DNA from: a virus
Lineage: Duplodnaviria > Caudoviricetes
Virus record (IMG/VR): IMGVR_UViG_3300010354_000091
Coordinates: 1-62,062 of that record
Reading direction: 5' to 3' (one strand)
DNA length: 62,062 bases
The notes beneath the pieces were generated by a model. That model did not search any database, was not told the origin of the DNA, and was given only the letters and a program-made list of their open reading frames with translations. Positions 47,101 to 62,062 of this stretch are shown piece after piece; the first letter of the stretch is position 1, and every line of letters begins with the position of its first letter. The position numbers and the translations under genes were made by a program.

Positions 47101-50100
47101 CCCCAATATTTCCTACGACAGAGACTGTTATCTGTGGATAGTTGAATATATGGTTTCCAAAACCTTTGGATGTAAAAACAGCATATTGATTGGTTTCATA
47201 GTTTGTTGTTGATGGATATGTTCCTATTCCAGCAGACGCCAATCTAAAATTGTTGTCATCTATTTTAATTACATAATATTTTTCTGATGTGCTTAGTCCA
47301 GAAATAGTTGTTCCATCGCAAGAATAAGTTATTAACTCACCAGAATTATAACCGTGATTTGGAATATTGATATAACTACTTGAAGTAATAATTCCGGAAG
47401 TATTTGCTATTTTCTTTTTATTTTCATATCCACTTCCTTCAGAAATCACATTAATGTGTGATATTATATTTTTCTTCTTGGTAGCTCTAAATCTTTGAGT
47501 TCCACTTCCACCTTCAATCAGATTAATTGGATTTAGTGAGTTTAAAGAATCTTTTTCATTATTGTGAATTTTAATTCTCTTTTGATCAACAACAGATACA
47601 AAATAAGAAGAGTTATCTTGCAAATATGTTTTTGTAGTAGTATCACCAGACGTTGATCCTATACCAATTTTTTGACCGTTGAATGAATCATATACAATTT
47701 CTTCCCCATTATTAAATTTGTGGTCAGTGTTAAAACCAATAATGTTATCAGTAAAGTTGAGGTATAGTCCCCCACCAGTGGATATTCCAGCAGCGTTAAA
47801 ATATAATTCATGATCAACTTCACGAAGTTTTGCAACTGCAGATGCACCTGATCCATTTCCACCACTAATTACTATTTTTGGAACATCAACATATCCAAAT
47901 CCAGAATCTAATATCTCTATTCTTTTTAGAGATCCAGAAACTGAACAATTTCCAGTAGCTCCTATTCCAAAGGAATCTGTTATTTCTAAGACAGGTGGAT
48001 TTATAACATCATAATCAGTTCCACCATTAAGAACATCTATAGAATTGATTGGTCCATAATGGACAACTTCATTTGATTTATAGTTGAGAATTTCAACTCC
48101 ATTTGCCAGAATTCCTATTCTCTTTCCAGGAGGAGTTTCCGTTGAAGTTTCTAAAGTGCTTCTAGAAACTTCTATCTTTCTTACTAGTTTTTGAGAATCT
48201 AAAATCTTACCATAATTTTCTGAAGGAACTAAAGTAAAGGATTGTGAATTGGAATCGGAATTATAAAAACTATAGAATATATCATTAGTAATATTTGATG
48301 CACTCAATGCCAATTTGATTGTATCATTGTCAATTCTTTTAACTACGAAATATTTTTTATTTTCTTTTGAAAATGCTTCGGAGTTTGAAATAAAAACTAC
48401 CTTGTCTCCACTATAAAAGTTATGATTTTGAATTGTTATTTCAGTTATAGCAGTGAGACCAGAAACTGAGACTGATTTGGATCTATTATCCGATTGTATT
48501 TCATATGATGGGATTGATGGAGAAGTAACAACTAGTGACCCATTTAAATCATAAACGTCCTGAACATTTGTCGTATAAGTTCTTTCTGAATTATTAAAGG
48601 TGTTAATAATTCTTCTTATTGCATATTCATTTGAAAATTCACTTAGATTATTTTGATCTATGTTTGCAGAAACTCTTATTTTTTTATCTGTTAATATTTT
48701 TTCTACTTTTCCTAATATTGTTGAATTGTCATTCTTATTGACAAATTCTATCTGATCATTTTTGTTTAGTTGATGATCGTCATAGGTTGAAATTTCAAAA
48801 TAAGGATTTGTATATCTTATGTTTTCAATATTAAATGATGTTGAAGTATTAAAAATCCAACTATTAAACAATGCATCACTTTTTTCTTTTATAAGTCCAA
48901 TACTCTTTACGTTTACTGGATCACCAACACTATAGTAATAATTATTTTCATGTTCTAAATTGAGATTCTCAATAACTCCTGTCACACGAACATTTATTTT
49001 TTGATTATTTTCATCAAATCCATATGTTTCATAATTAGATGCTACAACATCATCACCAATTGATTCGGTAGTGATCCCAATACAATCTAAAAATTGGTTA
49101 TTAGTTTTGCTACCATAGGATATGGTATTCCCATTAATTAATAGAGATCCTTTTTCTTCAAATCCTATTGTAGAATCTACAATGAGTGAATTTTGTAACT
49201 TTGAAACGATTTTAGTTTTTGGATGCGATTTAATATTGCCAAAAATTGTTCCAAAAACTTTAATATCTCTATCATATCCAAAATCTACATCAAGTGAGTA
49301 GTATGGTTCATTTTCATAATAGATAAGTTCTACGTCAGAAATTGATCCATATGAAGTTATAGTTTCAGACTCTGTTTTTATCTCTTGAAAAAGAGTTCCA
49401 CCAGATAATTTTAAAGGATCTCCACTTATTGGTTTTACGATAATTGTTTTTACAGGTCTATAGTCATTATCAGAGGGTTTAAACAAATAATCTTGTGGTT
49501 TTATTGTTTCACTGTTTTCATTGAGTAGACTCTTAAATAAAATCTTATTTGATGTAGGAGTTCCCTTAGAAGAATAAAAATCTTTTGATTGGATTAAGAA
49601 GTTTTGGGAATTTATATTTGAGTATAAATCAAAATCTTCAAATCCTGGAAGATATTGTGCCTTTAGTTTTTTGAAAAACTCTTTTAAGAATAAAGTACTT
49701 AAATTTTCTACCGTTGATCCAGAGGAATGTATATCAATTTCTGAAGATTCGTAACTAACCTGTTTACCAGCAATATTATAAGTTGTAATTCCACTAAACC
49801 CTCTTATGCACCCATTAAAACTTGTACTCCCCAAGGAAGTATAAGTAATAATTTCATCATTTATTTTTAGGAGACCATATCTATCTGGCCATCCATTAGT
49901 ACTATTAACATAAATTGTAGAATCACCATAATCTACATCTTGAGAAACTCTAGTATTGCTTTCTCCAATAATTTCCGATGTATATGTTCCTACTTTCAAT
50001 AATTGATCAATATTTTGAACTATACTCAGTGGTGCTGAGAAATGTTCTTGAGATTCGTAGTATTGTTTTAAAAATGGTCCAAAAAGTGGATACTCTTCTT

Positions 50101-50161
50101 GGAAGTAAAGGGGAACTTGACCTTCTACAAGGTTTTTGGCAGAAATTCTAGTTTCAATCAT
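38156..50161 (-). CDS. g7: Giant baseplate wedge initiator
   Basis: 4001 aa between g6 and g8; FLKQYY, KDFYSSKGT, DGDYYQNFSYSIKS and HTAGFK motifs; HSPIIGWAYDGNPIYGPYG...LDEHNGRF (YHYH-like) module; many GSGY repeats. Confidence 0.85.
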   Translation of the reverse strand: MIETRISAKNLVEGQVPLYFQEEYPLFGPFLKQYYESQEHFSAPLSIVQNIDQLLKVGTYTSEIIGESNTRVSQDVDYGDSTIYVNSTNGWPDRYGLLKINDEIITYTSLGSTSFNGCIRGFSGITTYNIAGKQVSYESSEIDIHSSGSTVENLSTLFLKEFFKKLKAQYLPGFEDFDLYSNINSQNFLIQSKDFYSSKGTPTSNKILFKSLLNENSETIKPQDYLFKPSDNDYRPVKTIIVKPISGDPLKLSGGTLFQEIKTESETITSYGSISDVELIYYENEPYYSLDVDFGYDRDIKVFGTIFGNIKSHPKTKIVSKLQNSLIVDSTIGFEEKGSLLINGNTISYGSKTNNQFLDCIGITTESIGDDVVASNYETYGFDENNQKINVRVTGVIENLNLEHENNYYYSVGDPVNVKSIGLIKEKSDALFNSWIFNTSTSFNIENIRYTNPYFEISTYDDHQLNKNDQIEFVNKNDNSTILGKVEKILTDKKIRVSANIDQNNLSEFSNEYAIRRIINTFNNSERTYTTNVQDVYDLNGSLVVTSPSIPSYEIQSDNRSKSVSVSGLTAITEITIQNHNFYSGDKVVFISNSEAFSKENKKYFVVKRIDNDTIKLALSASNITNDIFYSFYNSDSNSQSFTLVPSENYGKILDSQKLVRKIEVSRSTLETSTETPPGKRIGILANGVEILNYKSNEVVHYGPINSIDVLNGGTDYDVINPPVLEITDSFGIGATGNCSVSGSLKRIEILDSGFGYVDVPKIVISGGNGSGASAVAKLREVDHELYFNAAGISTGGGLYLNFTDNIIGFNTDHKFNNGEEIVYDSFNGQKIGIGSTSGDTTTKTYLQDNSSYFVSVVDQKRIKIHNNEKDSLNSLNPINLIEGGSGTQRFRATKKKNIISHINVISEGSGYENKKKIANTSGIITSSSYINIPNHGYNSGELITYSCDGTTISGLSTSEKYYVIKIDDNNFRLASAGIGTYPSTTNYETNQYAVFTSKGFGNHIFNYPQITVSVVGNIGVGFTLSQNYNAIVNPVFRGEITSIQLTSNGSGYGSTDIIGFDRQPNIELKSGSGAIVKPIIKGSSVSSILVISGGSGYNSSPNLEIVGDGSYLKAAPIIENGVIKSFKIENGGVGFTTGKSEIEVKSSGSDAKFKSNIKKWTVNIAEKYKNTFSKNDDGFITSGISSNLQYTCLFAPRNLRLNLPSKNTDGTNNYNDYDLIYDTNEKISTNHSPIIGWAYDGNPIYGPYGYEREVGGTIRPQRSGYEQVLESDRPPGFESGFFVEDYKFTNNGDLDEHNGRFCKTPEFPNGTYAYFASIETSENGYDSSYLNYRRPKFPYLIGNKFKSKLLNYNSLPSSNQNDVDFTQDNYIRNTYPYKLNLSNSDYRGITQPNKTVNRSSRISSIQRGSVDGFSIDFPGLNYKIGDSIIFSSINPDENDASAQVSEIFESRISSIDSQKTLLNNVSLEILTTSGLIQGVSTVPHGLKNLDFVNIIGISSEQFSKLGGFNEINVKGNNFVLSVGLGTIGSTGISTFLQFYKFTDPSTLQPNDVLSITKTGVGTEKLLVTGVDPIFGRVNVKRGHDGTVGYAYSVGTVVVENPRRFTYNSGFSTDSFTNIQKTLYFNPKESVAIGVPAVVTVGLGTTISISYGSTFINQYIPLQSIYLPNHNLLTGQRLIYSNGGGTSISVSTGAGSTTLENGSSVYVAKFTKDLIGISTTKVGLGSTGGFVGIGETANLLYFSSIGSGSIHSFKTQEVELTAQVKKITTTVNCDQNHNLEENDTIRLEISPGISTTVTVKYNPYNRRLVIDPVGVSSIGINTVTSTITLESHGLKTGDKVIYSSSNPAFGLTPEKIYYIVKVNDDKFKLTNSYYQTQIDKPTYVSIASTGVFHEFSKVNPQIKATRGNVINFDLSDSSLADIDGGSLVKAFDFDFYTDSTFATKFLTTLKTQDFEVKKTGVIGVTNDASVSITLNNNVPNKLYYKLTPLIGKPYLSKEKEEIIVDSDVYEANSIIINPSKYNTSHVISGIGSTTFSFSLKEEPEKYSYTKAESQLKYFTNSSSATGSISRIKTIFGGKYSVIPGITSVRSNTGSGAVIQPNSKTIGKILKSPIEIGGFEYHTDPTLKPISEFPTRLFVEELFSIKDIGLIYGGKNYSSPPNFVVLDGATNELKSEVVLESEIENNRVSKVSILKNTNSLYGVTPKIVSINNTNGIGVTNIQFNPTTKQVTVNLATGFSTASSFPFSVGSKIYVEGIGISTIGDGFNSENYGYKLFTLTGVTSAIGGNTPILNYTLSETDFAGQFSRDNSIQNSSNSFGRIVPESYLPKFEPTLFPGEITYGVGENVKYNNKNIAKVVEWIPSSKILKINEVLENIPDGAILKGDASNTSCIVISKVESESSFNVSSTTDKLKDYSKETGKIGTFLQVLQDGDYYQNFSYSIKSKVPIEKWGDKVDSLTHTAGFKKFSDLQVESQSNLEISALEETVDVLVDLIDEKDFDCYEDFDFVKENVKSFGGKLTSDQIIFSNVKLLDYTEFISNRVLEIDDISPEFDDTPSIFNYCVVGTFDVTKYNSAQFCILIKDTRYFGEKEIIIVNVTYDGSNGYLTAYGRNETVDDLGRFSFRRSGNNGEVLFYPRKYEYNSYNISNVVTEIANNSITGIGTSSLGDVVSFASTAVQISSSASPTENTIISISTNRYSSGKILLSVFDSTNSQSQFGEISLANNGSEVFYEIFGEIDSGDRGPSFESGIAGQIGVSTSTGNVLVTFTPNPNIDVHVRALSILMGNTSFTGVATYNLYKSTISSNYVSIASSTSPTETKISGFSTSSINPPDGAHYYVQVTDTTNGEIQFSEVILSNQSDYTPQVAQYSIIGSSGELGSIGAASTSGETQLTFTPNANIDVEVRTFQKTLQISPIVDPIEVNLQSARIRSDIVRLSFEGTQISTKKDFNLKHKDSSIFRKIIDGSSTDVIDVEKDTISIPNHFFVSGEKIDYSTTGTKIGIATTSVTGIGTTDLLPSTLYAVKIDDNLVKFAETAEKALASNPVVFDIQTVGVGQSHIFSSNYKSNSKAIISIDNVIQNPVVSTARTTSLLQDIEAINSFSLLTFENTDGFYAKDLIKINDEFLIITDVGLGGTNKVYCRREQLGTLSTPHLSGAVITRYEGNYNILNDTIYFVESPHGEELNSESRSSFQGRVFLRSAPVGSSNTAYYENQIFDDISNQFNGTDSTFTLKSNGQNVTGIVSTNSVSAGILLINNIFQKPKYPATGIAQTYTYEVVENSGISSVIFSGNPVGLTTNGIIGPMKYDINSAGIPRGGIIVSVGSTQGYGFQPLVAAGGTANVSIAGTIQSVSIGNSGSGYRPGIQTSITVSVATSTGKIAIGTASAVNGHIVSISVTNVGSGYTTTNPPTIIIDSPLNYENIPLIYSPSNVGVGTEATIDIQVGYGNSVIEFNLSNSGYGYSVGDKITFNIGGNAGIPTDPSISFRPFELTVSEVFNDKFNSWYPGQFVVLDDFNGEFDGSKKLFTLKENGVISSFVTGEGSPLELEQNLLVFINDILQIPNESYIFNGGTKIEFLEAPKQGDNVKVLFFKGSDADVKSVEISPTVKEGDRLTITDRFRKGRYSEKTRVVSEINSVDSVFTSSYFGPGITSESSIVRTVEWCKQREDLYLDEILISKSRKDLNSNIFPNTTIISPVGVASTSIFVQNVRPLFNYYPEILPQGKQSVKIISQEQKLGAIATAVVSVAGSISQINILNGGLGFSTAPIVSISSPSIGTTAVATCSIGFGTVSSVIVSNGGLGYTSTNPPQILIEQEPVKFDILTDVNYEGDHGIITGIGTTSISGVSTGIYFDFYFPKNSIFRNASLVGSSSSISGIQTGYYFVVYESTVGNGLTSLNSNGNILGIGTTFIDNVYQSFDVKNVQSNALGYGSTTDIVRVTTSVTSYNNISGIGSQFIGMFSWGRIYNFNRASSDNEYGVDLSNGLSGITTSALIVRTTPIRSLYTS

Positions 50162-53673: not shown

Positions 53674-54420
53674 TCAAATAATACGAGTTTTTTCATGACC
53701 CACACGAATCAGTGGATCACACCAGATCTCATAGCCTTTATCCTTAGCATCGAGACAGAACGATACGTCTTCACCACACATATCCTGGACTTCTCCAGAA
53801 TTAAACTTCTGCATCTTTGGAGCAAACCAAGGATACTCAAGATTCTCAAAGACACCTTTCTTAATCAGAACCCAACCGAATCCAGTGTAATCAACTGTAA
53901 AGGGTTTCTTACGTTTCTGAATGGTCTCAAGAGTTTCATGATTCATCACACCACCATTGTTCTTGAAGTCATCTTCTTCAAGCCAGTGTGCAACGGAAGT
54001 GGTATTACCATCTTCTGTGCAATACCATCCAGACATAATATCTTTGTCATGATGAACGAGTCGATAAAACTTTTCAGTGTCAAAGACAATATCTGAGTCA
54101 ATCCAGAGTTGGTAATCGTATTCCAGTTTACCATCCCATGGTTTTTGATTTGGACCACGAAGAACATTTGCTCCTAGACATTTGCAACGAGCAAAGTTCA
54201 CCATGGAAGAATAATCCTGAGAAATTTGAATGCTTGCACCTGCTTGAACAAGATCAAAACAAAGTTGCACAAAATTCTTCAGGAAAATATATGAACATCC
54301 TCTACCAGGTAGGCAAAAGACAATGCTTTTACCTTTTACCATTTCCTTTGCAGCATCGATGTCAAAGACATCAGGATTTTTCGGAGGAGTATTTGCAATA
54401 ACAGTAAATCCTTTAGCCAT
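53674..54420 (-). CDS. Glycosyltransferase-like protein (GT-A fold)
   Basis: LWIDSD (DxD), TGFGWVLIK, GEDVSFC and VGHEK motifs. Confidence 0.8.
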   Translation of the reverse strand: MAKGFTVIANTPPKNPDVFDIDAAKEMVKGKSIVFCLPGRGCSYIFLKNFVQLCFDLVQAGASIQISQDYSSMVNFARCKCLGANVLRGPNQKPWDGKLEYDYQLWIDSDIVFDTEKFYRLVHHDKDIMSGWYCTEDGNTTSVAHWLEEDDFKNNGGVMNHETLETIQKRKKPFTVDYTGFGWVLIKKGVFENLEYPWFAPKMQKFNSGEVQDMCGEDVSFCLDAKDKGYEIWCDPLIRVGHEKTRII

Positions 54421-54443
54421 ACAATAAAAAATACTTCAGAACA

Positions 54444-54473
54444 ATTTTAACAGTCTATATAGGCACTTGTCAA
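54444..54473 (-). promoter_or_regulatory. Sigma70-type promoter
   Basis: TTGACA-18 nt-TAAAAT with extended TG, upstream of the GT gene. Confidence 0.7.
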
Positions 54474-54637
54474 TACGATGCCTCAGTATATCTTGGTGGT
54501 GATAGTTTAATAATCTCAACCTCCTCCAAGTCTACTTCATCTTTTCTAATTTTGTCACAGAGTTCATCAAATGTTAAACTGTGAGCTACTACATTATCTT
54601 TTTTGTAGATGTGATACATTGTTTCTCTTTCAGACAT
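54470..54637 (-). CDS. Hypothetical protein, 55 aa
   Basis: Manual ORF: MSERETMYHIYKKDNVVAHSLTFDEL...TEASY. Confidence 0.7.
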   Translation of the reverse strand: MSERETMYHIYKKDNVVAHSLTFDELCDKIRKDEVDLEEVEIIKLSPPRYTEASY

Positions 54638-54658
54638 GGAAATATCTCCGGAAAATTT

Positions 54659-54817
54659 TTACAGAGAAATATTTTCGATAATCAATTTGTTATTCTCAAC
54701 TTTATAATCGAGTACCGCACCTTCTTCCCATTCAAGTGTATCTTTCAGTTCGGAAGGAATGTGAATGTAAAACTCTTCTTTTTCGTCGTTGTAAATTAGA
54801 TCTGCTGTGTAATCCAT
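54659..54817 (-). CDS. AbrB/MazE/SpoVT-like small DNA-binding protein
   Basis: Manual ORF, 52 aa: ...FYIHIPSELKDTLEWEEGAVLDYKVENNKLII, matching the swapped-hairpin pattern. Confidence 0.7.
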   Translation of the reverse strand: MDYTADLIYNDEKEEFYIHIPSELKDTLEWEEGAVLDYKVENNKLIIENISL

Positions 54818-54846
54818 ATATGTTTTTCTTTTTTCAATTTATATAT

Positions 54847-54975
54847 TCACCTTGAGAATTTTACAATAATAATTCCAAGTATAACCAAAAAGATATGCCA
54901 AAATGTCTTTGGATATCTGATTAACCACCCAGCAAAAACAACCTTCCAAAAATTCCAATAGGGGGATTTTCTCAT
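54847..54975 (-). CDS. Small membrane protein, 42 aa
   Basis: Manual ORF: MRKSPYWNFWKVVFAGWLIRYPKTFWHIFLVILGIIIVKFSR. Confidence 0.65.
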   Translation of the reverse strand: MRKSPYWNFWKVVFAGWLIRYPKTFWHIFLVILGIIIVKFSR

Positions 54976-55171
54976 TTCTTCTTTCTTTTTGGTGCCATTT
55001 TTATTCCGGAAAATTTTTTTTGAGAGAAGGATATTGAGCTCGGGTTTTCAAAGTTTTATAGATTAAAGGGACCCAAAAGATTATATATCGCATCGCCCGC
55101 AGGACGGCATAACAAACCACCGTAAATCACTGCTGATCACGGATACTCAAAAAACGCATAAGACTGCCCCC

Positions 55172-55197
55172 AGTATAAACCAGGGGCAGCACAGTTA
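55172..55197 (+). repeat. 26-bp inverted repeat arm 1, flanking the 52-aa ORF
   Basis: AGTATAAACCAGG-GGCAG-CACAGTTA; 21/26 identical to the reverse complement of 55385-55410. Confidence 0.7.
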
Positions 55198-55204
55198 GTT
55201 AGAC

Positions 55205-55363
55205 TCAGAACTCCAATTCATAAGCACTGGGTTCACCTCCACCGAAACTTTGAGCACTGCCATTATCACTTACTGTATCAGCACTAAGTGACTCCAGGAT
55301 GGACAGAATTTCATTGCCAGTGTTACCTTGACGGAGCATGGAGATGAGAACTTGCTTGGACAT
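55205..55363 (-). CDS. Hypothetical protein, 52 aa
   Basis: Manual ORF: MSKQVLISMLRQGNTGNEILSILESL...YELEF. Confidence 0.7.
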   Translation of the reverse strand: MSKQVLISMLRQGNTGNEILSILESLSADTVSDNGSAQSFGGGEPSAYELEF

Positions 55364-55384
55364 AATAACGAAGAAAAGTGTTGT

Positions 55385-55410
55385 TAACTGTGTGGTGCCT
55401 AGTTTATACT
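55385..55410 (-). repeat. 26-bp inverted repeat arm 2
   Basis: AGTATAAACTAGG-CACCA-CACAGTTA on the minus strand. Confidence 0.7.
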
Positions 55411-55437
55411 CATGCGACAGGAGTGAGTGTTACTGAC

Positions 55438-55695
55438 TCAGAGATCTGCGATGACTTCGTTGAGTTCAATACGGTTCAACTTAGAGTCTTTCCACTTAAC
55501 ACCATCGGGAGTAGATTTGCAGTTAAAAGAACATGCTTCCAGTGCATCTACGAAGTCTTGGTAATCATCACACTGCTGAGCAATGCTATAGAAACCGTAG
55601 TCATTTTGAATCCAGAGTGCAACATTCCAGGTCTCATAATTCGTCCAACCGTTATACTCAGTATCGGTCAGATTTGCTTGGTAGGTGACTGTCAT
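55438..55695 (-). CDS. Hypothetical phage protein (YNGWTNYETWNVALW type)
   Basis: 85 aa; recognisable widespread phage motif. Confidence 0.8.
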   Translation of the reverse strand: MTVTYQANLTDTEYNGWTNYETWNVALWIQNDYGFYSIAQQCDDYQDFVDALEACSFNCKSTPDGVKWKDSKLNRIELNEVIADL

Positions 55696-55711
55696 GTTCG
55701 GTGGTTGTCCT

Positions 55712-55748
55712 TATACAATAGGGACAATTTAAAGGCCCCCCATGTTAG
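55712..55748 (-). repeat. Gene-junction palindromic repeat, copy A
   Basis: CTAACATGGGGGGCCTTTAAATTGTCCCTATTGTATA. Confidence 0.92.
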
Positions 55749-55916
55749 TTACTCTACCTGCTGCAACCTATCAACAAACTCATCCAAATATTCAGTAGGA
55801 TCATGACCTAACTGTGCGACCCTTTCTAACTCATTGAAGATCGTTGTTAAGTGTTTATAAAAGGGCACACGCATTCTGTCAGTTTTGCCCAGATATTTGT
55901 AGTTTGGAGGTCTCAT
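55749..55916 (-). CDS. Small putative DNA-binding protein (ribbon-helix-helix-like), 55 aa
   Basis: Manual ORF: MRPPNYKYLGKTDRMRVPFYKHLTTIFNELERVAQLG...; the RHH call is inference. Confidence 0.65.
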   Translation of the reverse strand: MRPPNYKYLGKTDRMRVPFYKHLTTIFNELERVAQLGHDPTEYLDEFVDRLQQVE

Positions 55917-55966
55917 AGTTTTGTCCCAAAATACCCCTGATATTTATACCTTTTTGGGACAAAACT
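55917..55966 (-). promoter_or_regulatory. Late promoter TATAAATA (55941-55948) inside a perfect 15-bp inverted repeat
   Basis: AGTTTTGTCCCAAAA-20 nt-TTTTGGGACAAAACT; one arm abuts the ATG at 55916. Confidence 0.8.
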
Positions 55967-55980
55967 CAAAACCCTTGGTA

Positions 55981-56196
55981 TCACTCAAAAACGTCACAGT
56001 AGATGTCATAAAGTTCTCGAAGTTTGTCCTCTGAATAGATTACCAACTGTGCGAGTTCTTCAGATGTAATGGTGACAGGATCTTCACCCGCCCACTGAAT
56101 CAAATCACGCAGACAGATTGATTCAGCAACTGTGTCTCCATTAAAGATCTCTTCTAGGAGAAACTGTGATTCTTCAGTAATGCTCTGAGTGACCAT
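55981..56196 (-). CDS. Hypothetical acidic protein, 71 aa
   Basis: ORF track; AAGG Shine-Dalgarno and a sigma70 promoter upstream. Confidence 0.7.
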   Translation of the reverse strand: MVTQSITEESQFLLEEIFNGDTVAESICLRDLIQWAGEDPVTITSEELAQLVIYSEDKLRELYDIYCDVFE

Positions 56197-56220
56197 TGAT
56201 TAACCTTTGAGTGCTTTGTT

Positions 56221-56250
56221 AGTATATATCGGGAGGGTTGTATTTGTCAA
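56221..56250 (-). promoter_or_regulatory. Sigma70-type promoter (leftward)
   Basis: TTGACA-18 nt-TATACT. Confidence 0.7.
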
Positions 56251-56298
56251 GGGGTTTATGAGGTCTTCTGTGCGGTCCTGGGAGTGTCTCTGAGGGGG

Positions 56299-56327
56299 TT
56301 GCATTTCTCTGAGGTTTGTGTTATAAT
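56299..56327 (+). promoter_or_regulatory. Sigma70-type promoter (rightward)
   Basis: TTGCAT-17 nt-TATAAT with extended TGn. Confidence 0.75.
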
Positions 56328-56406
56328 GCGCGCACTTTAATCACCACCAAACTACACAAAATTAACCTTTTCAAAATAAATATCACAAAGAAGCACTTTC
56401 ATCATT

Positions 56407-57171
56407 TTGGCATACATTTACTCCATAACAAACAATATAAATCAAAAGCAATACATTGGTTTAACACGCCAGGCAAATCCTTATGATAGATGGAAACAAC
56501 ATTTAGAAGATAGTAAGTATAACTCACAAAGTCCTATTCATCGTGCCATTCGTAAATACGGAACGCAGAACTTTAAGTTTAGAGTTCTTGAAGAATGTGC
56601 AGACAATAAGGTAGAAGAAAGAGAGATACATTACATTGCAAAGTGTAATTCATTTTATGAAGGATACAATGCTACTTTAGGTGGAAACATTCGTTATGAT
56701 ACAGATGCAAAACCCATAACACAATATACTAAAAAAGGAGAAAAGATAAGAGACTTTGCATCACTTAGAGATGCAGCAGAGTTTATAGACAAAGAACAAA
56801 GTGCAATCAGTAGATGTGCCAATGGTGAAAGATTTTCTGCTTATGGGTATAGATGGAGTTGGAAAGGTGACAAATTACCTTTACTTCAAAAGAGCAAGTA
56901 TTGTTGTCCTTATTATGGTTACAATAATAAAGGTGAGTATAAGGAATGGGCCTCAAGTGTGGAAGCTGCAAAAGAAATTAAGTGTGACAGAAGAAGTATA
57001 ACATCATCTGCAAATAGTAAGAAAGAAAATAAACTTCAATGTCGTGGGTGGTATGTATTCAAAATGAGTGATGGTAAGATAGATTTTGATGAAATTACTT
57101 TTGCAAAAAAGTATAGACCAACAAGTGAAAAGGCACGAGAAATGGTAAAAATTAGATGCCAAAAAACATAA
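56407..57171 (+). CDS. GIY-YIG homing endonuclease with NUMOD1-like repeats
   Basis: YIYSITN...YIGLT...RW..H, E.HYI...GYN.T.GG, and QYT..GE.IR.F.S..AA motifs; TTG start. Confidence 0.9.
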   Translation: MAYIYSITNNINQKQYIGLTRQANPYDRWKQHLEDSKYNSQSPIHRAIRKYGTQNFKFRVLEECADNKVEEREIHYIAKCNSFYEGYNATLGGNIRYDTDAKPITQYTKKGEKIRDFASLRDAAEFIDKEQSAISRCANGERFSAYGYRWSWKGDKLPLLQKSKYCCPYYGYNNKGEYKEWASSVEAAKEIKCDRRSITSSANSKKENKLQCRGWYVFKMSDGKIDFDEITFAKKYRPTSEKAREMVKIRCQKT

Positions 57172-57196
57172 AAAAAAGAGGGACACCACTCCCTCT
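57170..57196 (-). terminator. Intrinsic terminator between convergent units
   Basis: AGAGGGA-6 nt-TCCCTCT with a long T-run on the minus strand. Confidence 0.75.
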
Positions 57197-57289
57197 CTTA
57201 TACCCAACCACTTTGACTTTTAGAAGAATTATCTACACTTACAAAGTCACTTTCTTTTTGTAGATGAGGCTAACTTCTTCCTCATTAAA

Positions 57290-57418
57290 TTACACTAATT
57301 CAGCAGGACTTCCACAAGAACGATAAAACTCAATCATCCGTTTTGCTTCATCTAATGTAGAGAAACTTTGCGTTCTCCATTGTTGCTGATAAGGTGTAAA
57401 GTATCGGATGGTGAACAT
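57290..57418 (-). CDS. Hypothetical protein, 42 aa
   Basis: Manual ORF: MFTIRYFTPYQQQWRTQSFSTLDEAKRMIEFYRSCGSPAELV. Confidence 0.7.
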   Translation of the reverse strand: MFTIRYFTPYQQQWRTQSFSTLDEAKRMIEFYRSCGSPAELV

Positions 57419-57430
57419 TTTAGTTTTGAT

Positions 57431-57622
57431 TCAATTAGAGTGAAGAATGTCTAGCATTTGTTGGTGATAGTGGTCTGCCTCACGAACTACATTTGCTGCC
57501 TCTGATACATCTTCAATCTCATACTTTGTCATCTCCAGAGAGTGAATCACATTAGAGAGAAGTTCAGTCAGAGCATCAATCTTGTCTGTATCAGTCATCT
57601 TGTGAGTTGTGGTTGTGCTCAT
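57431..57622 (-). CDS. Hypothetical protein, 63 aa
   Basis: First ATG is the last 3 nt of repeat copy B; alternative ATG 8 codons downstream. Confidence 0.75.
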   Translation of the reverse strand: MSTTTTHKMTDTDKIDALTELLSNVIHSLEMTKYEIEDVSEAANVVREADHYHQQMLDILHSN

Positions 57623-57650
57623 ACTACAGGGACAATTTGAAGGCCCCCAC
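57620..57650 (-). repeat. Gene-junction palindromic repeat, copy B
   Basis: GTGGGGGCCTTCAAATTGTCCCTGTAGTATG. Confidence 0.92.
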
Positions 57651-57669
57651 CCTTGTTTGCTTTCTAAAA

Positions 57670-57690
57670 TGTAGTATAATAAATACTACA
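57670..57690 (+). promoter_or_regulatory. Late promoter (TAATAAATA) embedded in an 8-bp palindrome, upstream of the HNH gene
   Basis: TGTAGTAT-AATAA-ATACTACA. Confidence 0.7.
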
Positions 57691-57704
57691 AAGTTAGGTA
57701 CTTA

Positions 57705-58202
57705 ATGATGAAAGAACATCCAATCTACAATAACATTTTAGTCGATGAAGATGGAAGCATTTATAGTACAGGAAAGAACTACAAATCACCTCGCAAACTG
57801 AAAGAAAGTTTAGATGAAAGAGGTTATGCAAGAGTGAGAGTACAAGTTGGATTGTATAATCAAAAGTTGAGAGCAGTACATAGATTAGTAGCAGAAACTT
57901 ACTTGCCCAATCCAAACAATCTAAGTGATGTTCATCATAAGGATGACAACCCAAGAAATAACAATTTGGATAATTTAGAGTGGGTCAGTCATAAACAAAA
58001 TTGTGAACTTTCAAGAGATAACATAGGAAGGAACAAAGCAGCAGAATGGAAGATCTTGCATATAGAAAGTAAAGAAACCTTTGTGATAAAGAACCTCGCT
58101 AAATGGTGTGAAGAAAATAATCTTAATAGATCAAATCTTCATAAGACATTAACAAAGGTAAATCACCACAAAGGTTATAAGATCTTAGAGAAACTCAATT
58201 AA
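57705..58202 (+). CDS. HNH homing endonuclease (I-HmuI/NUMOD4-like)
   Basis: VHRLVAETYLPNPNNLSDVHHKDDNPRNNNLDNLEWVSHKQN. Confidence 0.92.
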   Translation: MMKEHPIYNNILVDEDGSIYSTGKNYKSPRKLKESLDERGYARVRVQVGLYNQKLRAVHRLVAETYLPNPNNLSDVHHKDDNPRNNNLDNLEWVSHKQNCELSRDNIGRNKAAEWKILHIESKETFVIKNLAKWCEENNLNRSNLHKTLTKVNHHKGYKILEKLN

Positions 58203-58509
58203 GTCTCATACCACTGAAGAAGGGGATTGTCTGTCCATTATAAACAATGAACCACTCAAAGTTCTTGGAGAAAATCCTTTCACCTTCCATACCAAATGCT
58301 TGAAGAAGTGAGTTAATTCTGCTTTTAGTTGTAGCAGAACGCCAACCACCATCGAACAATTCCATCCAGGTTTCGCCAATGCGAGCAATCAGATTTCCGT
58401 GCAAATAAACATCAGAAACGTTACTGCAAGAGATAACTTCAGAGTTTGCAATCTTCAGATCTTTGTTGTCTTTGATTGCTTCGATGATTTGCTTTTCAAT
58501 CTTACGCAT
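58195..58509 (-). CDS. Hypothetical phage protein (MRKIE...VYLHGNLIA...TTKSRIN)
   Basis: 104 aa; downstream of repeat copy C. Confidence 0.8.
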   Translation of the reverse strand: MRKIEKQIIEAIKDNKDLKIANSEVISCSNVSDVYLHGNLIARIGETWMELFDGGWRSATTKSRINSLLQAFGMEGERIFSKNFEWFIVYNGQTIPFFSGMRLN

Positions 58510-58528
58510 TGTGGTTTGGGGTTGTGGT

Positions 58529-58563
58529 TACACTATAGGGGCAATTTGAAGGCCCCCATGTTT
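58529..58563 (-). repeat. Gene-junction palindromic repeat, copy C
   Basis: AAACATGGGGGCCTTCAAATTGCCCCTATAGTGTA. Confidence 0.92.
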
Positions 58564-58566
58564 GTG

Positions 58567-58704
58567 TTAGCAATAGATGTCAGGTCCAGTTACATCGCAA
58601 AACTCAAGCAGAAAGTAATCAATACTTACACCAACTTCTTGTGCTTCAGTATAAAACTCTTGGTATTGTTCACCGTTGAGAATAAAGAAATCAGTTTCAA
58701 TCAT
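58567..58704 (-). CDS. Hypothetical acidic protein, 45 aa
   Basis: Manual ORF: MIETDFFILNGEQYQEFYTEAQEVGVSIDYFLLEFCDVTGPDIYC. Confidence 0.7.
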   Translation of the reverse strand: MIETDFFILNGEQYQEFYTEAQEVGVSIDYFLLEFCDVTGPDIYC

Positions 58705-58825
58705 GAGGGGCAATGATGTCTGCTATGGTGTGTAATGTTTGGGAAGTAGTGTTACGAACTCCTGGTGAGAGAGTTAATGCAACGACAAAGATTAACAGAA
58801 TTGTTTTCACTTTCTGTCGTCTCAT
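58697..58825 (-). CDS. Small membrane or signal-peptide protein, 42 aa
   Basis: Manual ORF: MRRQKVKTILLIFVVALTLSPGVRNTTSQTLHTIADIIAPHD. Confidence 0.65.
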   Translation of the reverse strand: MRRQKVKTILLIFVVALTLSPGVRNTTSQTLHTIADIIAPHD

Positions 58826-59056
58826 TCAATCGAATCGAGAGGATACATCAGGACCAGGATTCTCAAGGTGTGCAACACTATCTGCTACACCTTCAGCAGT
58901 TAGTGCAAACTGTACTTTCTGACCGTTGTAGTAAATGTCAAAGACAGATTGAACATAAGGTGTCAGATTGCCTTCAGAATCCCATGCATTTCGTGTATGG
59001 GAAGTCTCAACGATTTCGTAGACTTTAGAGGTGAGAGGTGAAGTGTAGGTCATCAT
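58826..59056 (-). CDS. Hypothetical protein, 76 aa
   Basis: ATG is the end of repeat copy D. Confidence 0.75.
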   Translation of the reverse strand: MMTYTSPLTSKVYEIVETSHTRNAWDSEGNLTPYVQSVFDIYYNGQKVQFALTAEGVADSVAHLENPGPDVSSRFD

Positions 59057-59089
59057 ACTATAGGTGCAATTTCAAGGCCCCCATGTTAG
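59054..59089 (-). repeat. Gene-junction palindromic repeat, copy D
   Basis: CTAACATGGGGGCCTTGAAATTGCACCTATAGTATG. Confidence 0.93.
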
Positions 59090-59095
59090 CAACTC

Positions 59096-59275
59096 TTACA
59101 GTCCGTTGAAGTATTCGTGAAGTTCTGAAAAGTATTGCTCTTTAGTCTCAAAATGACGCCCATAAATGTCACAAGGGAACGTGTGCTTTTGAAACATCGT
59201 AGATGCAACTTTTATATCTTGTTCATCATAACCCATCTCAATCAGTGTTTGAACGTAAGGATTAGTGTGTGTCAT
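59096..59275 (-). CDS. Hypothetical protein, 59 aa
   Basis: Start reassigned to ATG 59275 (MTHTNPYVQTLIEMGY), right after the upstream stop. Confidence 0.75.
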   Translation of the reverse strand: MTHTNPYVQTLIEMGYDEQDIKVASTMFQKHTFPCDIYGRHFETKEQYFSELHEYFNGL

Positions 59276-59276
59276 T

Positions 59277-59459
59277 TCAGTTACCGAAGAAAGCATCAAA
59301 CTCATCTGCGATCTGATCAATCAGTTCATCAGTTGCATCAAGGTCAAATACATCACAAACCCAATCTACAGCATCATTTAGGTCTGTGTGATTGTTGCAC
59401 ATAAACTCACGAAGTGCAGGTGCAATTTGATCTTGGAAGTCGATTTGAGTGGTATTCAT
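59277..59459 (-). CDS. Hypothetical acidic protein, 60 aa
   Basis: ATG is the end of repeat copy E. Confidence 0.75.
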   Translation of the reverse strand: MNTTQIDFQDQIAPALREFMCNNHTDLNDAVDWVCDVFDLDATDELIDQIADEFDAFFGN

Positions 59460-59491
59460 ACTATAGGGGCAATTTCAAGGCCCCCATGTTT
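59457..59491 (-). repeat. Gene-junction palindromic repeat, copy E
   Basis: AAACATGGGGGCCTTGAAATTGCCCCTATAGTATG; overlaps the upstream TAA and ends in the downstream ATG. Confidence 0.94.
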
Positions 59492-59756
59492 AATTCACTG
59501 TGAAATAGGTTCCGTTTGCCTTATTCAGTGTGATAAGTTTCTCTTGAATGTCATTGAGTCCATCTTCATCTTGTTCATCAACTGCTTCACATTCAGTCCA
59601 ATCATCTAACCGAATCGCACCCGATTCACTGATGGGAGTATAATACAGTGTGCCTTCATCATCAATCGAATAGGCACAACCATGACCTTCACAAGTGTAG
59701 ATAATCATTTCGGTGGTTTGAGTCATTTTTGCAGTAGGATTAGGAAGGGAAATCAT
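59490..59756 (-). CDS. Hypothetical protein, up to 88 aa
   Basis: ORF track. Confidence 0.7.
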   Translation of the reverse strand: MISLPNPTAKMTQTTEMIIYTCEGHGCAYSIDDEGTLYYTPISESGAIRLDDWTECEAVDEQDEDGLNDIQEKLITLNKANGTYFTVN

Positions 59757-59759
59757 TTC

Positions 59760-59930
59760 TCAGTCAACAACAGAGTAACAAGCAACAGAGGAAGGAATCC
59801 CACTTAGTGATAACGAACCATTGCGGGCATCGCAATAGTCTTGTGCCTCATCTTCAGAGTAGAAAGGTCCAATATACTCAGGAGAATTGAGTGCATTAGA
59901 ATCGAATCGGACGGTGAAGGTGTTTGTCAT
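59760..59930 (-). CDS. Hypothetical protein, 56 aa
   Basis: Manual ORF: MTNTFTVRFDSNALNSPEYIGPFYSEDEAQDYCD...; its only ATG is the end of repeat copy F. Confidence 0.75.
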   Translation of the reverse strand: MTNTFTVRFDSNALNSPEYIGPFYSEDEAQDYCDARNGSLSLSGIPSSVACYSVVD

Positions 59931-59962
59931 ACTATAGGTGCAATTTCAAGGCCCCCATGTTT
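59928..59962 (-). repeat. Gene-junction palindromic repeat, copy F
   Basis: AAACATGGGGGCCTTGAAATTGCACCTATAGTATG. Confidence 0.94.
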
Positions 59963-59965
59963 CAA

Positions 59966-60130
59966 TCACCCAGGAAGATCAAACTTCATTCTTATCATGT
60001 CTTTCTGACATCTTTCAATCTTTTCATATACATCCACAAACAATTCGCAGAGGTTGTGTAGATCTACATTCTGTCCATCAGGTGCTAGAAACTCACGAAT
60101 GGTATTGTATTTTTCTTGTGATGCTGTCAT
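59966..60130 (-). CDS. Hypothetical protein, 54 aa
   Basis: Manual ORF: MTASQEKYNTIREFLAPDGQNVDL...; ATGA overlap with the upstream gene. Confidence 0.7.
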   Translation of the reverse strand: MTASQEKYNTIREFLAPDGQNVDLHNLCELFVDVYEKIERCQKDMIRMKFDLPG

Positions 60131-60417
60131 ACAAAACACTGCTCCAAAATTGTCAGTTTAGGTGGTTCCATTCCACTATAAGGAGTGGTGGTATTCTTCA
60201 CGTCTTGAATCTCTTTCCCCATGTCCTTGTAATTTATAGGACGATAGAACTTACCTGTCTTGGTGTTGAAGAATCCCCAGCAACAACGGACAATTTTTCC
60301 ATTGTTGTAATCGAACTTTCTATCGTAAACAACTACAATTCTAACTATGTTGCGTTTATACTCCTCAACTTCATAATGAGTTTGTGTGGGAGGTTGATGT
60401 GGAAAATTGATTTTCAT
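60127..60417 (-). CDS. Hypothetical phage protein (FPH.PP...WGF...TTPYSGM)
   Basis: 96 aa from ATG 60417. Confidence 0.75.
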   Translation of the reverse strand: MKINFPHQPPTQTHYEVEEYKRNIVRIVVVYDRKFDYNNGKIVRCCWGFFNTKTGKFYRPINYKDMGKEIQDVKNTTTPYSGMEPPKLTILEQCFV

Positions 60418-60448
60418 AGTCAAATAATAATACAAAAAGTTTAATTTG

Positions 60449-61048
60449 TCAAGATAAGTGGGACACTATTCTTGCTGTCCATCCTTTATGTTGTCTGTAT
60501 TTTCCAGTAATTACACTATGTAAACATCCAGCATTTAATCCATTGTCTCTACAAAATTGTTTAAGGTTATTTGATTGATATTGTCTTCCATCTGGACTTG
60601 TAAAAATATAATTATATTTACACCTCAACTCAATTTGTTCTTTTGTCAATTTAACTCCTAGTCTTGAAGGTGGTTTAATGTTTTTTCTCTTTAATGTATC
60701 TCTAATTTTATTTTTTATCTCTCCAGTAAATGTGTAATTCTTTCTTCCTTCAAATAAAGCATTTTTATGCTCATCACTCAATGGTCTCCCTGATGTTCCC
60801 TCTCCACCATTAGTTTTGTTTCTTAAAATACCTGTCCCCAAGTCTTTTCTACCTAAGATAGAAATCATATAAACTTCATGCTTAAATGCTTCTTCTTCTA
60901 TTAGGTTATTTTTTAGAATTAAAACTCTTTCTTTTTTAGGAACACCTACAGTGTGATTTTTATCATATAAACGATAATTTTTCCCCTTACCAATATAATA
61001 AGGAGTTCCGTCTTCACGCAAATATGCGTAAGTGTAATAATTAGTCAT
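60449..61048 (-). CDS. GIY-YIG-like homing endonuclease with a NUMOD3-like segment
   Basis: YYTYAYLREDGTPYYIGKG...R, LRNKTNGGEG and C-terminal NLKQFCRDNGL...HKGW motifs. Confidence 0.85.
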   Translation of the reverse strand: MTNYYTYAYLREDGTPYYIGKGKNYRLYDKNHTVGVPKKERVLILKNNLIEEEAFKHEVYMISILGRKDLGTGILRNKTNGGEGTSGRPLSDEHKNALFEGRKNYTFTGEIKNKIRDTLKRKNIKPPSRLGVKLTKEQIELRCKYNYIFTSPDGRQYQSNNLKQFCRDNGLNAGCLHSVITGKYRQHKGWTARIVSHLS

Positions 61049-61145
61049 TGCTTTTAACTAACCGCATTAGTATTTATATTACAAAGGAGGAGATTTCTCT
61101 CCTCCAACCTTACAGATTGCGGTCAGTTAAGGCACCATTATTTAT
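61049..61145 (-). promoter_or_regulatory. Structured control region of the endonuclease gene: two late promoters, terminator hairpin, long-range inverted repeat
   Basis: ATAAATA 61139-61145; arm 61118-61134; GGAGGAGA-GAAA-TCTCCTCC 61086-61105; TATAAATA 61071-61078; complementary arm 61049-61066. Confidence 0.75.
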
Positions 61146-61318
61146 CACTCAACGCGAACTCCAATCACATCACAAGATTGCGAATCGTCAAACCATTCAT
61201 GAAACTCACTCATGATTGCTTCTGCTGTATCATATTCTCCCAATTCTAGGAGATAAGTAACTCTTTTGTCAACCTCACTTTTCACTCTTTCAACTAGATC
61301 ATAATAATGCTTTTTCAT
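61145..61318 (-). CDS. Hypothetical protein, 57 aa
   Basis: From ATG 61318 (MKKHYYDL) with AAGGA Shine-Dalgarno. Confidence 0.7.
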   Translation of the reverse strand: MKKHYYDLVERVKSEVDKRVTYLLELGEYDTAEAIMSEFHEWFDDSQSCDVIGVRVE

Positions 61319-61349
61319 GTGAATCCTTATACTTTGAAAAAAATTGACG

Positions 61350-61455
61350 ATTTTACTGCGAAGAATGACCCATAGCACCCTCACAGTAAAATTGCAGAAA
61401 AATCGGGTTTTTGGTCTAGTGGTGGATAGTGTTCTCAGTGAGACTTAAATGAGAA
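61350..61455 (-). other. Structured intergenic element, possible ncRNA or cis-RNA
   Basis: About 15-17-bp stem at 61350-61392 with G-U pairs on the minus strand; second short hairpin TTCTCA...TGAGAA. Confidence 0.5.
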
Positions 61456-61650
61456 TCACAGAGTTTGCCAACCTTGTGCTTCTTTGACATCAGAATCATA
61501 ATACTTTTGTATGATACTGTCAATCACAGAATACCATTCAGAGTTACCACTAGGATACCCACATTCTCGTGCTCGATTCAGAAACCATAAGATACAAGTT
61601 TCTTCATCCCTAGTGAAATGTACGCGGTTGAGTGTATAACCAGTGTTCAT
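61456..61650 (-). CDS. Hypothetical protein, 64 aa
   Basis: ORF track. Confidence 0.7.
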   Translation of the reverse strand: MNTGYTLNRVHFTRDEETCILWFLNRARECGYPSGNSEWYSVIDSIIQKYYDSDVKEAQGWQTL

Positions 61651-61653
61651 AAT

Positions 61654-61815
61654 TCAAACAGTTGGAGTTACATCAATTTCTTTAATGTTTAGACCACAGA
61701 GTTGTTCATAAACTCGGTTGAGAATAATTTTAGCAGCAGTCTTTGCTTTGGATTTCTCATACCAGATGGTGCAAAGACCATCAAATGTTTCAACATAAAT
61801 GCGATAGTTTTTCAT
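61654..61815 (-). CDS. Hypothetical protein, 53 aa
   Basis: Manual ORF: MKNYRIYVETFDGLCTIWYEKSKAK... Confidence 0.7.
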   Translation of the reverse strand: MKNYRIYVETFDGLCTIWYEKSKAKTAAKIILNRVYEQLCGLNIKEIDVTPTV

Positions 61816-61818
61816 TTC

Positions 61819-62062
61819 TTAAACTCCAAGAAGTTCGCGCTGTTCAGGTGTGAGAGAATTGATGAGTTCTTTACGCTTTTGTGCTTTCTCTTCTTTTTGC
61901 CTTTGCTCTTCTAGTTTCTCATCAAGAATAGTCATCATATTGCTAAACTCATAATCACCTTCTTGCCAAGTAGATTCACTCTCATTTGTGATGAAAAGTT
62001 TATTGGAATACCATTCATTATCATCCCACCAGTTATAACGGATTTCTACAATAAACCCATCA
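61819..62062 (-). CDS. Hypothetical protein, 3' part (start lies outside the window)
   Basis: Open frame ending KRKELINSLTPEQRELLGV*. Confidence 0.7.
   Translation of the reverse strand, partial: DGFIVEIRYNWWDDNEWYSNKLFITNESESTWQEGDYEFSNMMTILDEKLEEQRQKEEKAQKRKELINSLTPEQRELLGV

Follow-up and report, generated by a model that had tools for sequence, protein, structure and literature searches.

A short element of ca. 34 nt is repeated six times on one strand of the small-gene region of IMGVR_UViG_3300010354_000091, a 62,062-nt uncultured virus record (the window, i.e., the whole stretch of DNA analyzed). In 51 of 104 analyzable copies, drawn from the window and eight related records (orthologous copies are included, so these counts are not independent events), the start codon of the next gene directly touches the -10-like hexamer of the element, TATAGT. 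This fusion of a start codon to a -10-like box is a new feature. The explanation that we favor, with somewhat less than even confidence, is a lineage-specific junction cassette similar to the promoter-early stem-loops (PeSLs) of T4-type phages. It would work both as a host-type promoter devoid of a -35 box and as a recombination seam, and the embedded ATG would be translated from transcripts reading through from upstream.

The 62-kb window is the entire record for this genome, and its minus strand encodes a T4-type virion module (portal, sheath, large terminase, prohead protease, scaffold, baseplate wedge, and neck proteins). Its closest DNA match is Synechococcus phage S-SRM01, with 80% identity across 8% of the query. 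This match, together with the presence of a Kyano_Gp96 gene and the homologues of this gene in cyanophages, identifies the window as a fragment of an uncultured T4-like cyanomyovirus.

A repeated element at the junctions of small genes

A repeat finder gave the six same-strand copies, located at 55.7 to 60.0 kb and with the pattern AAC(A)TG-GGGGCCTTSAAAKTG-YCCC-TATAGT-RTRA, and a search with the 34-mer (≤3 mismatches) returned four matches in the window versus none in each of 100 shuffled sequences. On the minus strand, copies F (59928 to 59961), E (59457 to 59490), and D (59054 to 59087) read AACATGGGGGCCTTGAAATTG(CACC/CCCC)TATAGT followed directly by the ATG of a gene or, in full, AACATG-GGGGCCTTGAAATTG-(CACC or CCCC)-TATAGT-ATG. 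Each of these ATGs opens an ORF. Copy F (AACATG-GGGGCCTTGAAATTG-CACC-TATAGT-ATG) starts the 56-aa ORF 59760-59930, which has no Met codon other than that of the element; copy E, with a perfect GGGGC/GCCCC stem, starts the 60-aa ORF 59277-59459; and copy D starts the 76-aa ORF 58826-59056 (MMTYTSP...). The first-pass annotation had pointed to the zero spacing between TATAGT and ATG, without a Shine-Dalgarno motif, and to the single Met of ORF 59760-59930, and both are borne out at these three positions.

We call this arrangement class 1 and that in which a leader separates the hexamer from the gene class 2. Copy B (ca. 57620 to 57653, minus strand) is of class 1 with hexamer TGTAGT, and 24 nt past its ATG a second one follows in the same frame, that of the 63-aa ORF 57431-57622. 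Copy C (58529 to 58562, minus strand) is of class 2; its TATAGT-GTAA leads into 22 nt of A/C-rich leader, after which comes the ATG of ORF 58195-58509. Copy A (ca. 55712 to 55746, minus strand), also of class 2, has hexamer TATTGT, triplet ATA, six Gs, and a 19-nt leader before an 85-codon ORF (ca. 55438 to 55695). As had been noticed before, the hexamers of A, B, and C (TATTGT, TGTAGT, and TATAGT) are all followed, 6 nt later, by the same ACAACC. The 104-aa product of the gene behind copy C belongs to Pfam family Kyano_Gp96 (E 1.2e-37), and homologues of it are present in 409 phage records, the majority of which are from Synechococcus phages and cyanophages. The element stands directly before this gene in seven of nine records, and in all seven it is of class 2. 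One gene of the array, 59096-59275 on the minus strand (59 aa, MTHTNPYVQ...), has no element of its own and starts 1 nt past the stop of the preceding gene.

Distribution and conservation of the element

A scan of IMG/VR with the core pattern gave 49 loci, of which ca. 45 are real copies; L003, L028, L029, L031, and L036 were discarded as unrelated chance matches. When the parent records were searched with a 25-nt pattern, 4 to 14 matches were found per record, always on one strand within each record, and the reversed control pattern had no match in related virus records. The copy set used here comes from nine records, the window plus eight relatives (designated by G numbers), and contains 105 copies with ≤2 mismatches in the 15-nt core, 104 of them analyzable. 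The relatives are all uncultured fragments of T4-like cyanophages and contain 4 to 18 copies each, on a single strand; all 105 copies are on the gene strand. In G001, a 175-kb, 82%-complete record, they are found only at the cut contig start (1165 to 4508).

The conservation profile of 103 distinct copies begins at -6 (AAC), is nearly total in the core box, whose apparent conservation is inflated by the search pattern, and remains high through YCCC, the hexamer, and RTRA. Beyond RTRA comes an A/C-rich stretch in which conservation fades from ca. +35 and is gone by about +40. A metagenome scan gave at least 136 distinct core matches, part of them judged by eye to be true copies, indicating qualitatively that more lineages carry the same two classes. 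No match to the element was obtained by blastn in 50,697 phage records or in Rfam, apart from one chance match in the latter (L20_leader, E 0.9), and a literature search found no description of it. In that literature, PMC5082946 and PMC5349666 offer nothing further on cyanophage promoters, and the papers found to pair cyanophages with leaderless genes do so only by citing a gene-finder paper.

Start codons and spacing classes

Right after the hexamer, 51 copies have the triplet ATG, 36 have GTA, 8 have ATA, and 9 have another one. An ORF of ≥39 codons opens from the element ATG in 50 of the 51, the single exception being the copy at 25695 in G005, whose frame closes after 21 codons. Among the 50, no out-of-frame ATG is found within 30 nt; a second, in-frame ATG follows 3 to 27 nt later (most often 15 nt) in 26, and 24 have none (sole-ATG copies). 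The non-ATG copies mostly have GTA or ATA and then an A/C-rich leader. In these other 53, the gene ATG is found 2 to 5 nt past the hexamer in 10 and 15 to 71 nt past it in 41 (2 were unassignable), and the frames of the non-abutting copies (21, 13, and 17) look random. The spacing is bimodal, with distances of 6 to 14 nt in none of the 104 copies. No alignment column of the element shows a Shine-Dalgarno motif.

The ATG is kept at the abutting position only when it is in frame, the position being otherwise occupied by GTA or ATA, and this shows that ribosomes see it as a genuine start codon. The homologues of ORF 59760-59930 point the same way. In 91 of the 120 listed clusters they have 54 to 58 aa, and in 65 of the 120 M-x-x-T stands directly before a conserved F-x-V-x-F, the homologues beginning at the same residue. 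Many of the longer homologues begin with the translated element (...KCPSSM), and public calls such as P0005, P0008, P0016, P0017, P0021, and others use an upstream start and translate the element as ...P(K/L)KCP(S/Y)SM.... These starts are probably miscalled; they are possible only where the loop has C for G, a change that removes the in-frame TGA.

Comparison between records gives two further lines of evidence for the start codon. The ATG of the element-free window gene 59096-59275 is abutted by an element in G009 and G002, and in G007 an element ATG is in frame 15 nt upstream of the ATG of its orthologue. In another case, the gene has an untranslated class 2 leader of 18 nt in G006, and in G009 its orthologue is extended in frame by 18 nt from a class 1 copy.

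A candidate promoter without a -35 box

In the explanation that we favor, the element is divided into three parts. The first is a 15-nt box (GGGGCCTTSAAAKTG), which is near-invariant and has a G-run that can pair with the pyrimidine-rich YCCC after it; the second is the -10-like hexamer TATAGT with an overlapping TAGTRT, and the third consists of ca. 12 conserved A/C-rich bases. The hexamer would be read by the host sigma70-type RNA polymerase as a promoter lacking a -35 box, possibly helped by a factor bound to the box, which sits where a -35 or MotA box would. Transcription would start ca. 7 nt past the hexamer, at a conserved CA, so that class 2 genes would have an unstructured leader without a Shine-Dalgarno motif, and the ATG of class 1 genes would be translated from transcripts begun at upstream copies or at upstream canonical promoters. 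Read-through across the element would be allowed because no U-tract follows the potential hairpin. It is from the sequence that we infer the promoter activity, the start position, and the read-through.

Of the 104 copies, 88 have TAnnnT in at least one of two registers, 66 in register 0 (TATAGT) and 79 in register +2 (TAGTRT). The background is 2% per position, and much of the excess is explained by common descent. Copies that break one register usually keep the other. The position 7 nt past the hexamer (A31) is A in 84 of 103 copies, with C before it, which is compatible with a sigma70 start, and 41 copies have the ordinary geometry of promoter and leader, with the gene ATG ≥15 nt past the hexamer. 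On the other hand, CATGGG (as in copies F, E, and D) or CCTGGG is found 17 nt upstream of the hexamer, so there is no -35 box, and TTGAAA stands 7 nt before TATAGT. From the zero spacing to the ATG, the lack of a -35 consensus at 17 nt, and the TTGAAA at only 7 nt, the first-pass annotation had concluded that the element cannot be an ordinary sigma70 promoter. The lack of a -35 box is real, and it is also correct that a sigma70-type start 6 to 8 nt past the hexamer would leave the abutting ATG off the transcript of the element itself. As a general statement the conclusion is overstated, given the copies with ordinary geometry, the frequency of TAnnnT, and the -10-like boxes of relatives.

Host-type promoters are present beside the element, since the gene strand of the window has five sites that agree with TTGACA-N17/18-TAnnnT at 11 of 12 positions. 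A perfect TTGACA-17-TATTAT promoter (60415 to 60452, minus strand) ends 6 nt before the ATG of the 96-aa ORF 60127-60417, in the canonical leaderless geometry. It is common only to the window and G005, in both directly after a GIY-YIG-like homing endonuclease gene, and four other relatives have the gene of ORF 60127-60417 without this promoter. We considered this geometry as a clue to the element and set it aside, since a case restricted to G005 and lying beside a homing endonuclease gene says little. Four more 11-of-12 promoters with a perfect TTGACA are located on the minus strand at 54444 to 54473, 56221 to 56250, 61243 to 61272, and 61495 to 61523; two of them stand 23 to 24 nt before gene starts (54420 and 56196), and the other two lie inside the 3' parts of small ORFs.

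Several observations weigh against the promoter explanation. With a start 7 nt past the hexamer, the promoter could not serve the gene that it touches in 24 of the 51 class 1 copies, which is an odd design. An out-of-frame ATG at the abutting position was found only once in 51; from this near-absence it would follow that most transcripts contain the ATG, and transcription beginning at the ATG or upstream of it would fit at least as well, as would an element that is not a promoter. The A at position 2 of the hexamer, the key -11 base in register 0, is its least conserved position (73/103), the box is far better conserved than the hexamer (though the search pattern inflates the difference), and 16 copies retain the box without TAnnnT in either register. 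Besides lacking a -35 box, the element has no extended -10 TG. Sole-ATG copies might also be expected to avoid operon starts or terminators, and here only a nonsignificant trend was found (a gap of >40 nt in 1 of 24 versus 7 of 54 other copies). The in-frame rule and the sharp spacing, 0 nt versus ≥15 nt, keep alive, at a fairly low probability, the alternative of near-leaderless transcripts considered next.

Possible near-leaderless transcripts and phage-encoded polymerases

Here, transcription would start at the ATG or 1 to 5 nt before it, with class 1 genes undergoing leaderless translation and class 2 genes being reached through leaders of 17 to 35 nt. Either the loop SAAAKT would be the real -10 box, so that transcripts would begin at the A of TATAGT and have a leader of 5 nt, or a phage factor on the GGGGCC box would reposition the host polymerase. 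Although we consider such transcripts unlikely, the distribution of spacings (0 nt in 51 copies, 2 to 5 nt in 10, 6 to 14 nt in none, and ≥15 nt in 41) is that expected if short leaders harm both initiation pathways, and the rule that the ATG is in frame (50/51) or else GTA or ATA (44 copies) would place it on most transcripts. Moreover, the A (-11) and T (-7) of SAAAKT are invariant (103/103, part of this being fixed by the search pattern), a pyrimidine-purine step is found at the predicted start, and the sequence past the ATG is A/C-rich. However, no known bacterial promoter starts 0 to 3 nt after its -10 box, and SAAAKT is a poor one, since it lacks a T at -12, a -35 box, and a TG. The better match to a -10 box is TATAGT, which occurs in that role at the position where cultured relatives have their -10-like boxes.

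Known leaderless-mRNA promoters of bacteria and phages have the -10 box 6 to 8 nt before the ATG. The element resembles them in having a -10-like box very near a start codon without a Shine-Dalgarno motif, and it differs in its spacing of 0 nt (51 copies) or 2 to 5 nt (10 copies); the known spacing of 6 to 8 nt was found in 0 of 104 copies, and the whole range of 6 to 14 nt is likewise empty.

Nor do the proteins that could redirect transcription come to light. In four incomplete records (the window, G001, G002, and G005), searched without a positive control, there was no match to PF00940 (T7-type RNA polymerase), nor to MotA or AsiA (PF09114 and PF09010), which speaks against near-leaderless initiation by such factors. 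A promoter for a phage single-subunit (T7/SP6-type) or hairpin-reading (N4-type) RNA polymerase starting at TATA|G, as had been proposed for this element, finds no support in these searches and is very improbable in our view, even if 93 of 103 copies have TATAG with a purine as the putative +1 base and the 15 nt upstream, including an A/T-rich stretch, are conserved. The 82%-complete G001 is among the records without a PF00940 match, and its lone Sigma70_r2 match, the only sigma-like one, is a 167-aa frame that has the size of the T4-type late factor and probably is that factor. The genome is that of a T4-like cyanomyovirus, a group that is not known to carry T7/SP6- or N4-type polymerases. 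In addition, the loop of the element has 9 nt, unlike N4 promoters, whose hairpins have short loops, and the hexamer tolerates changes that retain TAnnnT.

Two further candidates were rejected. An antisense T7-like word, ACTATAGGGA on the plus strand, has an upstream part that is variable coding sequence. A sigma54 promoter, which has GG and GC 10 nt apart at -24/-12 and would predict a start close to the ATG, is suggested by GG-N10-G, but the C that it needs is present in only 15 of 103 copies, with T in 87; cyanobacteria are not known to have rpoN.

Possible hairpin and RNA-level function

The G-run can pair with the 3' YCCC, and the five inner pairs are G-C or G-U in 90 to 100% of 102 copies, while pairing at the three outer positions is confined to the AACATG subfamily. 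Frequent C-to-T changes in the 3' arm keep the pairing only in the sense-strand RNA, a pattern that plain transition bias would produce as well. An RNA hairpin is possible on these grounds. The processing or translation-coupling hairpin that the first-pass annotation had offered as an alternative gets no support from covariation. The 5' arm is invariant, and compensatory change does not exceed that in shuffled controls, which pair as well; the middle pair is mismatched in 10 of 102 copies, and for the six copies in the window folding z-scores lie between +1.26 and -2.2. What comes after the hairpin is TATAGT, not a U-tract, and a terminator scan of 54400 to 62062 found five sites, none at the element. 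A scan of viral contigs with the CTTNAAATTGNNNNNTATAGT pattern gave at least 118 loci, all of them chance matches, and was useless as an unbiased test of the stem. We also considered a mini-ORF (ATG-GGG-GCC-TTS-AAA-KTG-YCC-CTA-TAG, ending 1 nt before the ATG) as a conserved coupling device; its ATG is missing in the AACCT and AACTCT subfamilies, and the idea was dropped.

The same pairing would be central if the element were an intercistronic RNA device with no promoter function, the array being crossed by long transcripts from a few canonical promoters. The hairpin and UAUAGU would then determine processing or stability, or keep the AUG accessible without a Shine-Dalgarno motif, and the element would also stop incoming ribosomes because it has stop codons in two or three frames. 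Besides the G-C/G-U pairs and the C-to-T changes that preserve them in sense RNA, this possibility, to which we give a rather low probability, is consistent with an element that spans exactly from stop codon to start codon, with an ATG fixed relative to the hairpin in 51 copies, and with the TTGACA-N17/18-TAnnnT promoters on the same strand. The lack of covariation, the z-scores, the mismatched middle pair, and the lack of an Rfam family count against it. The geometry is also not fixed in class 2, in which the AUG is 15 to 51 nt away, and the -10-like variation of the hexamer and the -10-like boxes of relatives are left unexplained.

Compatible with any of the other explanations, the RNA of the element could be an operator for the translational repressor RegA, by which the whole array would be shut off together. 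In the accessible text of PMC3014915, T4 RegA sites overlap or directly precede the AUG, and the SELEX consensus is aaAAUUGUUAUGUAA. The element shares AAAUUGU with this consensus as given there, with UAUG 8 nt later, and RegA is encoded in G001 (L341, 1447 to 1893; PF01818, E 2.7e-47), 50 to 57% identical to coliphage RegA. The regA gene of G001 itself has CTTGAAATTG 10 nt before its ATG. We nevertheless regard the operator as doubtful. The resemblance was noticed post hoc, the known sites described in that text are unstructured with a poly(A) tract whereas that of the element is potentially structured, and AAAGTG is found in 29 of 103 copies. In the regA leader, the 10-mer belongs at the same time to the coding end of the gene upstream and varies synonymously among relatives, the exact word being present in ca. 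5 of ca. 75 loci; five other copies of the 10-mer in G001 lie within genes; and the preset pattern AAA[TG]TGT was not found in the G001 regA locus. As to the leader itself, in this clade it is strongly conserved (CGACTTGAnAyTGGAGG...ATG; L356-L435), and the clamp-loader small-subunit gene ends within it; in G001 (L341, 1437 to 1446) it holds a 10-mer identical to the loop of the element. Near-leaderless mRNAs produced by an undescribed initiation geometry through the GGGGCCTTSAAAKTG box, either bound by a phage or host factor or with its loop as the true -10 box, and with the RNA word possibly doubling as a RegA operator, form a combination that we judge unlikely, if worth keeping in mind.

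Probable read-through and gene swapping at the element

Returning to the promoter and seam that we favor, translation of class 1 genes would depend on transcripts arriving from upstream. Of the 24 sole-ATG copies, 23 come 3 to 17 nt after an ORF on the same strand. Strong terminator-like hairpins occur ca. 240 nt upstream of sole-ATG copies in G010 and G002, and directly downstream of them there is a TATTGT box, followed by a small gene that runs into the element. A candidate source of read-through is thus present in each case examined.

Small-gene cassettes would be gained, lost, and re-fused at the repeat, which would double as their seam. In clusters 5, 20, 24, 27, and 47, orthologues with and without the element are found among the records, cluster 5 occurs with or without cluster 49 beside it, and the orthologue of cluster 96 switches class. 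Presence or absence of the element and its class are polymorphic among orthologues, and we infer that recombination is the probable cause.

Comparison with known junction elements

PeSL cassettes have been described in the T4-type phages RB49/phi1, T4/PST, and KVP40/nt-1 (Arbiol et al. 2010, PMC2839356; Comeau et al. 2014, PMC4122927), where, according to the accessible text of both reports, they are intergenic repeats that extend from stop to start in the hyperplastic regions of the genome. A PeSL combines a sigma70-like promoter, whose -35 and -10 boxes are ca. 17 nt apart, with a stem-loop (often GGGG...CCCC) serving as terminator or attenuator and, at its 3' end, a Shine-Dalgarno sequence and a start codon. 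Measured against that text, the element is similar in its dense same-strand repetition within a small-ORF hyperplastic region of a T4-like myovirus, in its potential G-run/C-run stem-loop with G-T pairs just upstream of a -10-like box, and in the gain, loss, and replacement of small genes between relatives at the repeats. It differs in size (ca. 34 nt versus ca. 100 nt), in lacking the -35 box, the upstream A/T-rich region, the Shine-Dalgarno motif, and the U-tract after the hairpin, and in having a nearly invariant box where PeSL stems vary. A start codon that touches the -10-like hexamer, as in 51 of 104 copies of the element, is not described for PeSLs in the accessible text.

Cultured freshwater cyanomyoviruses provide another parallel. 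In S-SRM01 (MW015081), units made of a CTGGCACA box, a variable hairpin, TATAAT, and a 20- to 25-nt A/C-rich leader precede small genes, and in DSL-LC02 (OR032571) units have another private box, AGACTGTCCACTAAATCCGCCGA, a -10-like hexamer, and a leader of ca. 25 nt. Like the element, they stand before small same-strand genes and consist of a box private to the lineage, then a -10-like hexamer, then an A/C-rich leader in which no strong Shine-Dalgarno motif is seen, and the sequence after the -10 resembles that of class 2 copies (e.g., ...GTAAGCA...). The boxes are different, and in the copies read the ATG is always 20 to 25 nt past the -10 box. The S-SRM01 units (L050) are located upstream of the minus-strand gene starts 1080, 3021, 5230, 5827, 7861, and 9831, with a CTGGCACA-like box and a T-rich TATAAT, and their hairpins vary in sequence with compensating arms. 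Those of DSL-LC02 (L342) are upstream of the gene starts 6452, 7700, and 9001, with AGACTGTCCACTAAATCCGCCGA in two of the three and a conserved leader before the ATG, ...AAAGAGTCAAAGAA(A/C)GGAACGCAA.

T4 middle promoters, which depend on sigma appropriation and a MotA box at -30, also have a phage-specific box in place of the -35, upstream of a sigma70-type -10 box. Their box is unrelated in sequence to that of the element and differs in spacing, and any factor acting on the element would be hypothetical.

Other features of the window

The small-ORF region (55.6 to 62 kb) that contains the element copies also has three homing-endonuclease-like genes inserted in the small-gene array, GIY-YIG at 56407 to 57171 (plus strand), HNH at 57705 to 58202 (plus strand), and GIY-YIG/HNH at 60449 to 61048 (minus strand). 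Two of the three oppose the strand of the array, and copy B adjoins the divergent HNH gene. The gene at 60449 to 61048 is preceded by an intrinsic terminator (61086 to 61105) and by a TATAAATA motif resembling a T4 late promoter. Elsewhere, the baseplate/fiber region has giant minus-strand ORFs of 4001 aa (38156 to 50161) and 2530 aa (28962 to 36554), and a 611-aa ORF at 16221 to 18056 shows dense Gly-rich repeats with a 9-nt period.

Implications for T4-like cyanophages

The timing of early and middle genes in T4-like cyanophages is poorly understood, and these phages are not known to have a MotA/AsiA system. In this lineage, abundant in uncultured freshwater records, dozens of small genes are marked by one compact signal. 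A practical consequence is that gene-calling programs carry the start of some of these genes too far upstream, across the element, producing N termini such as ...KCPSSM. The more than 100 natural variants offer a clean system for asking whether, in the absence of a Shine-Dalgarno motif, an AUG that is leaderless or flanked by structure is used by cyanobacterial ribosomes, and they also bear on whether a phage factor replaces -35 recognition and on gene shuffling driven by repeated regulatory cassettes. If near-leaderless transcripts under RegA control were the true explanation, a whole array of swappable early genes would be switched on and off through a single 34-nt cassette.

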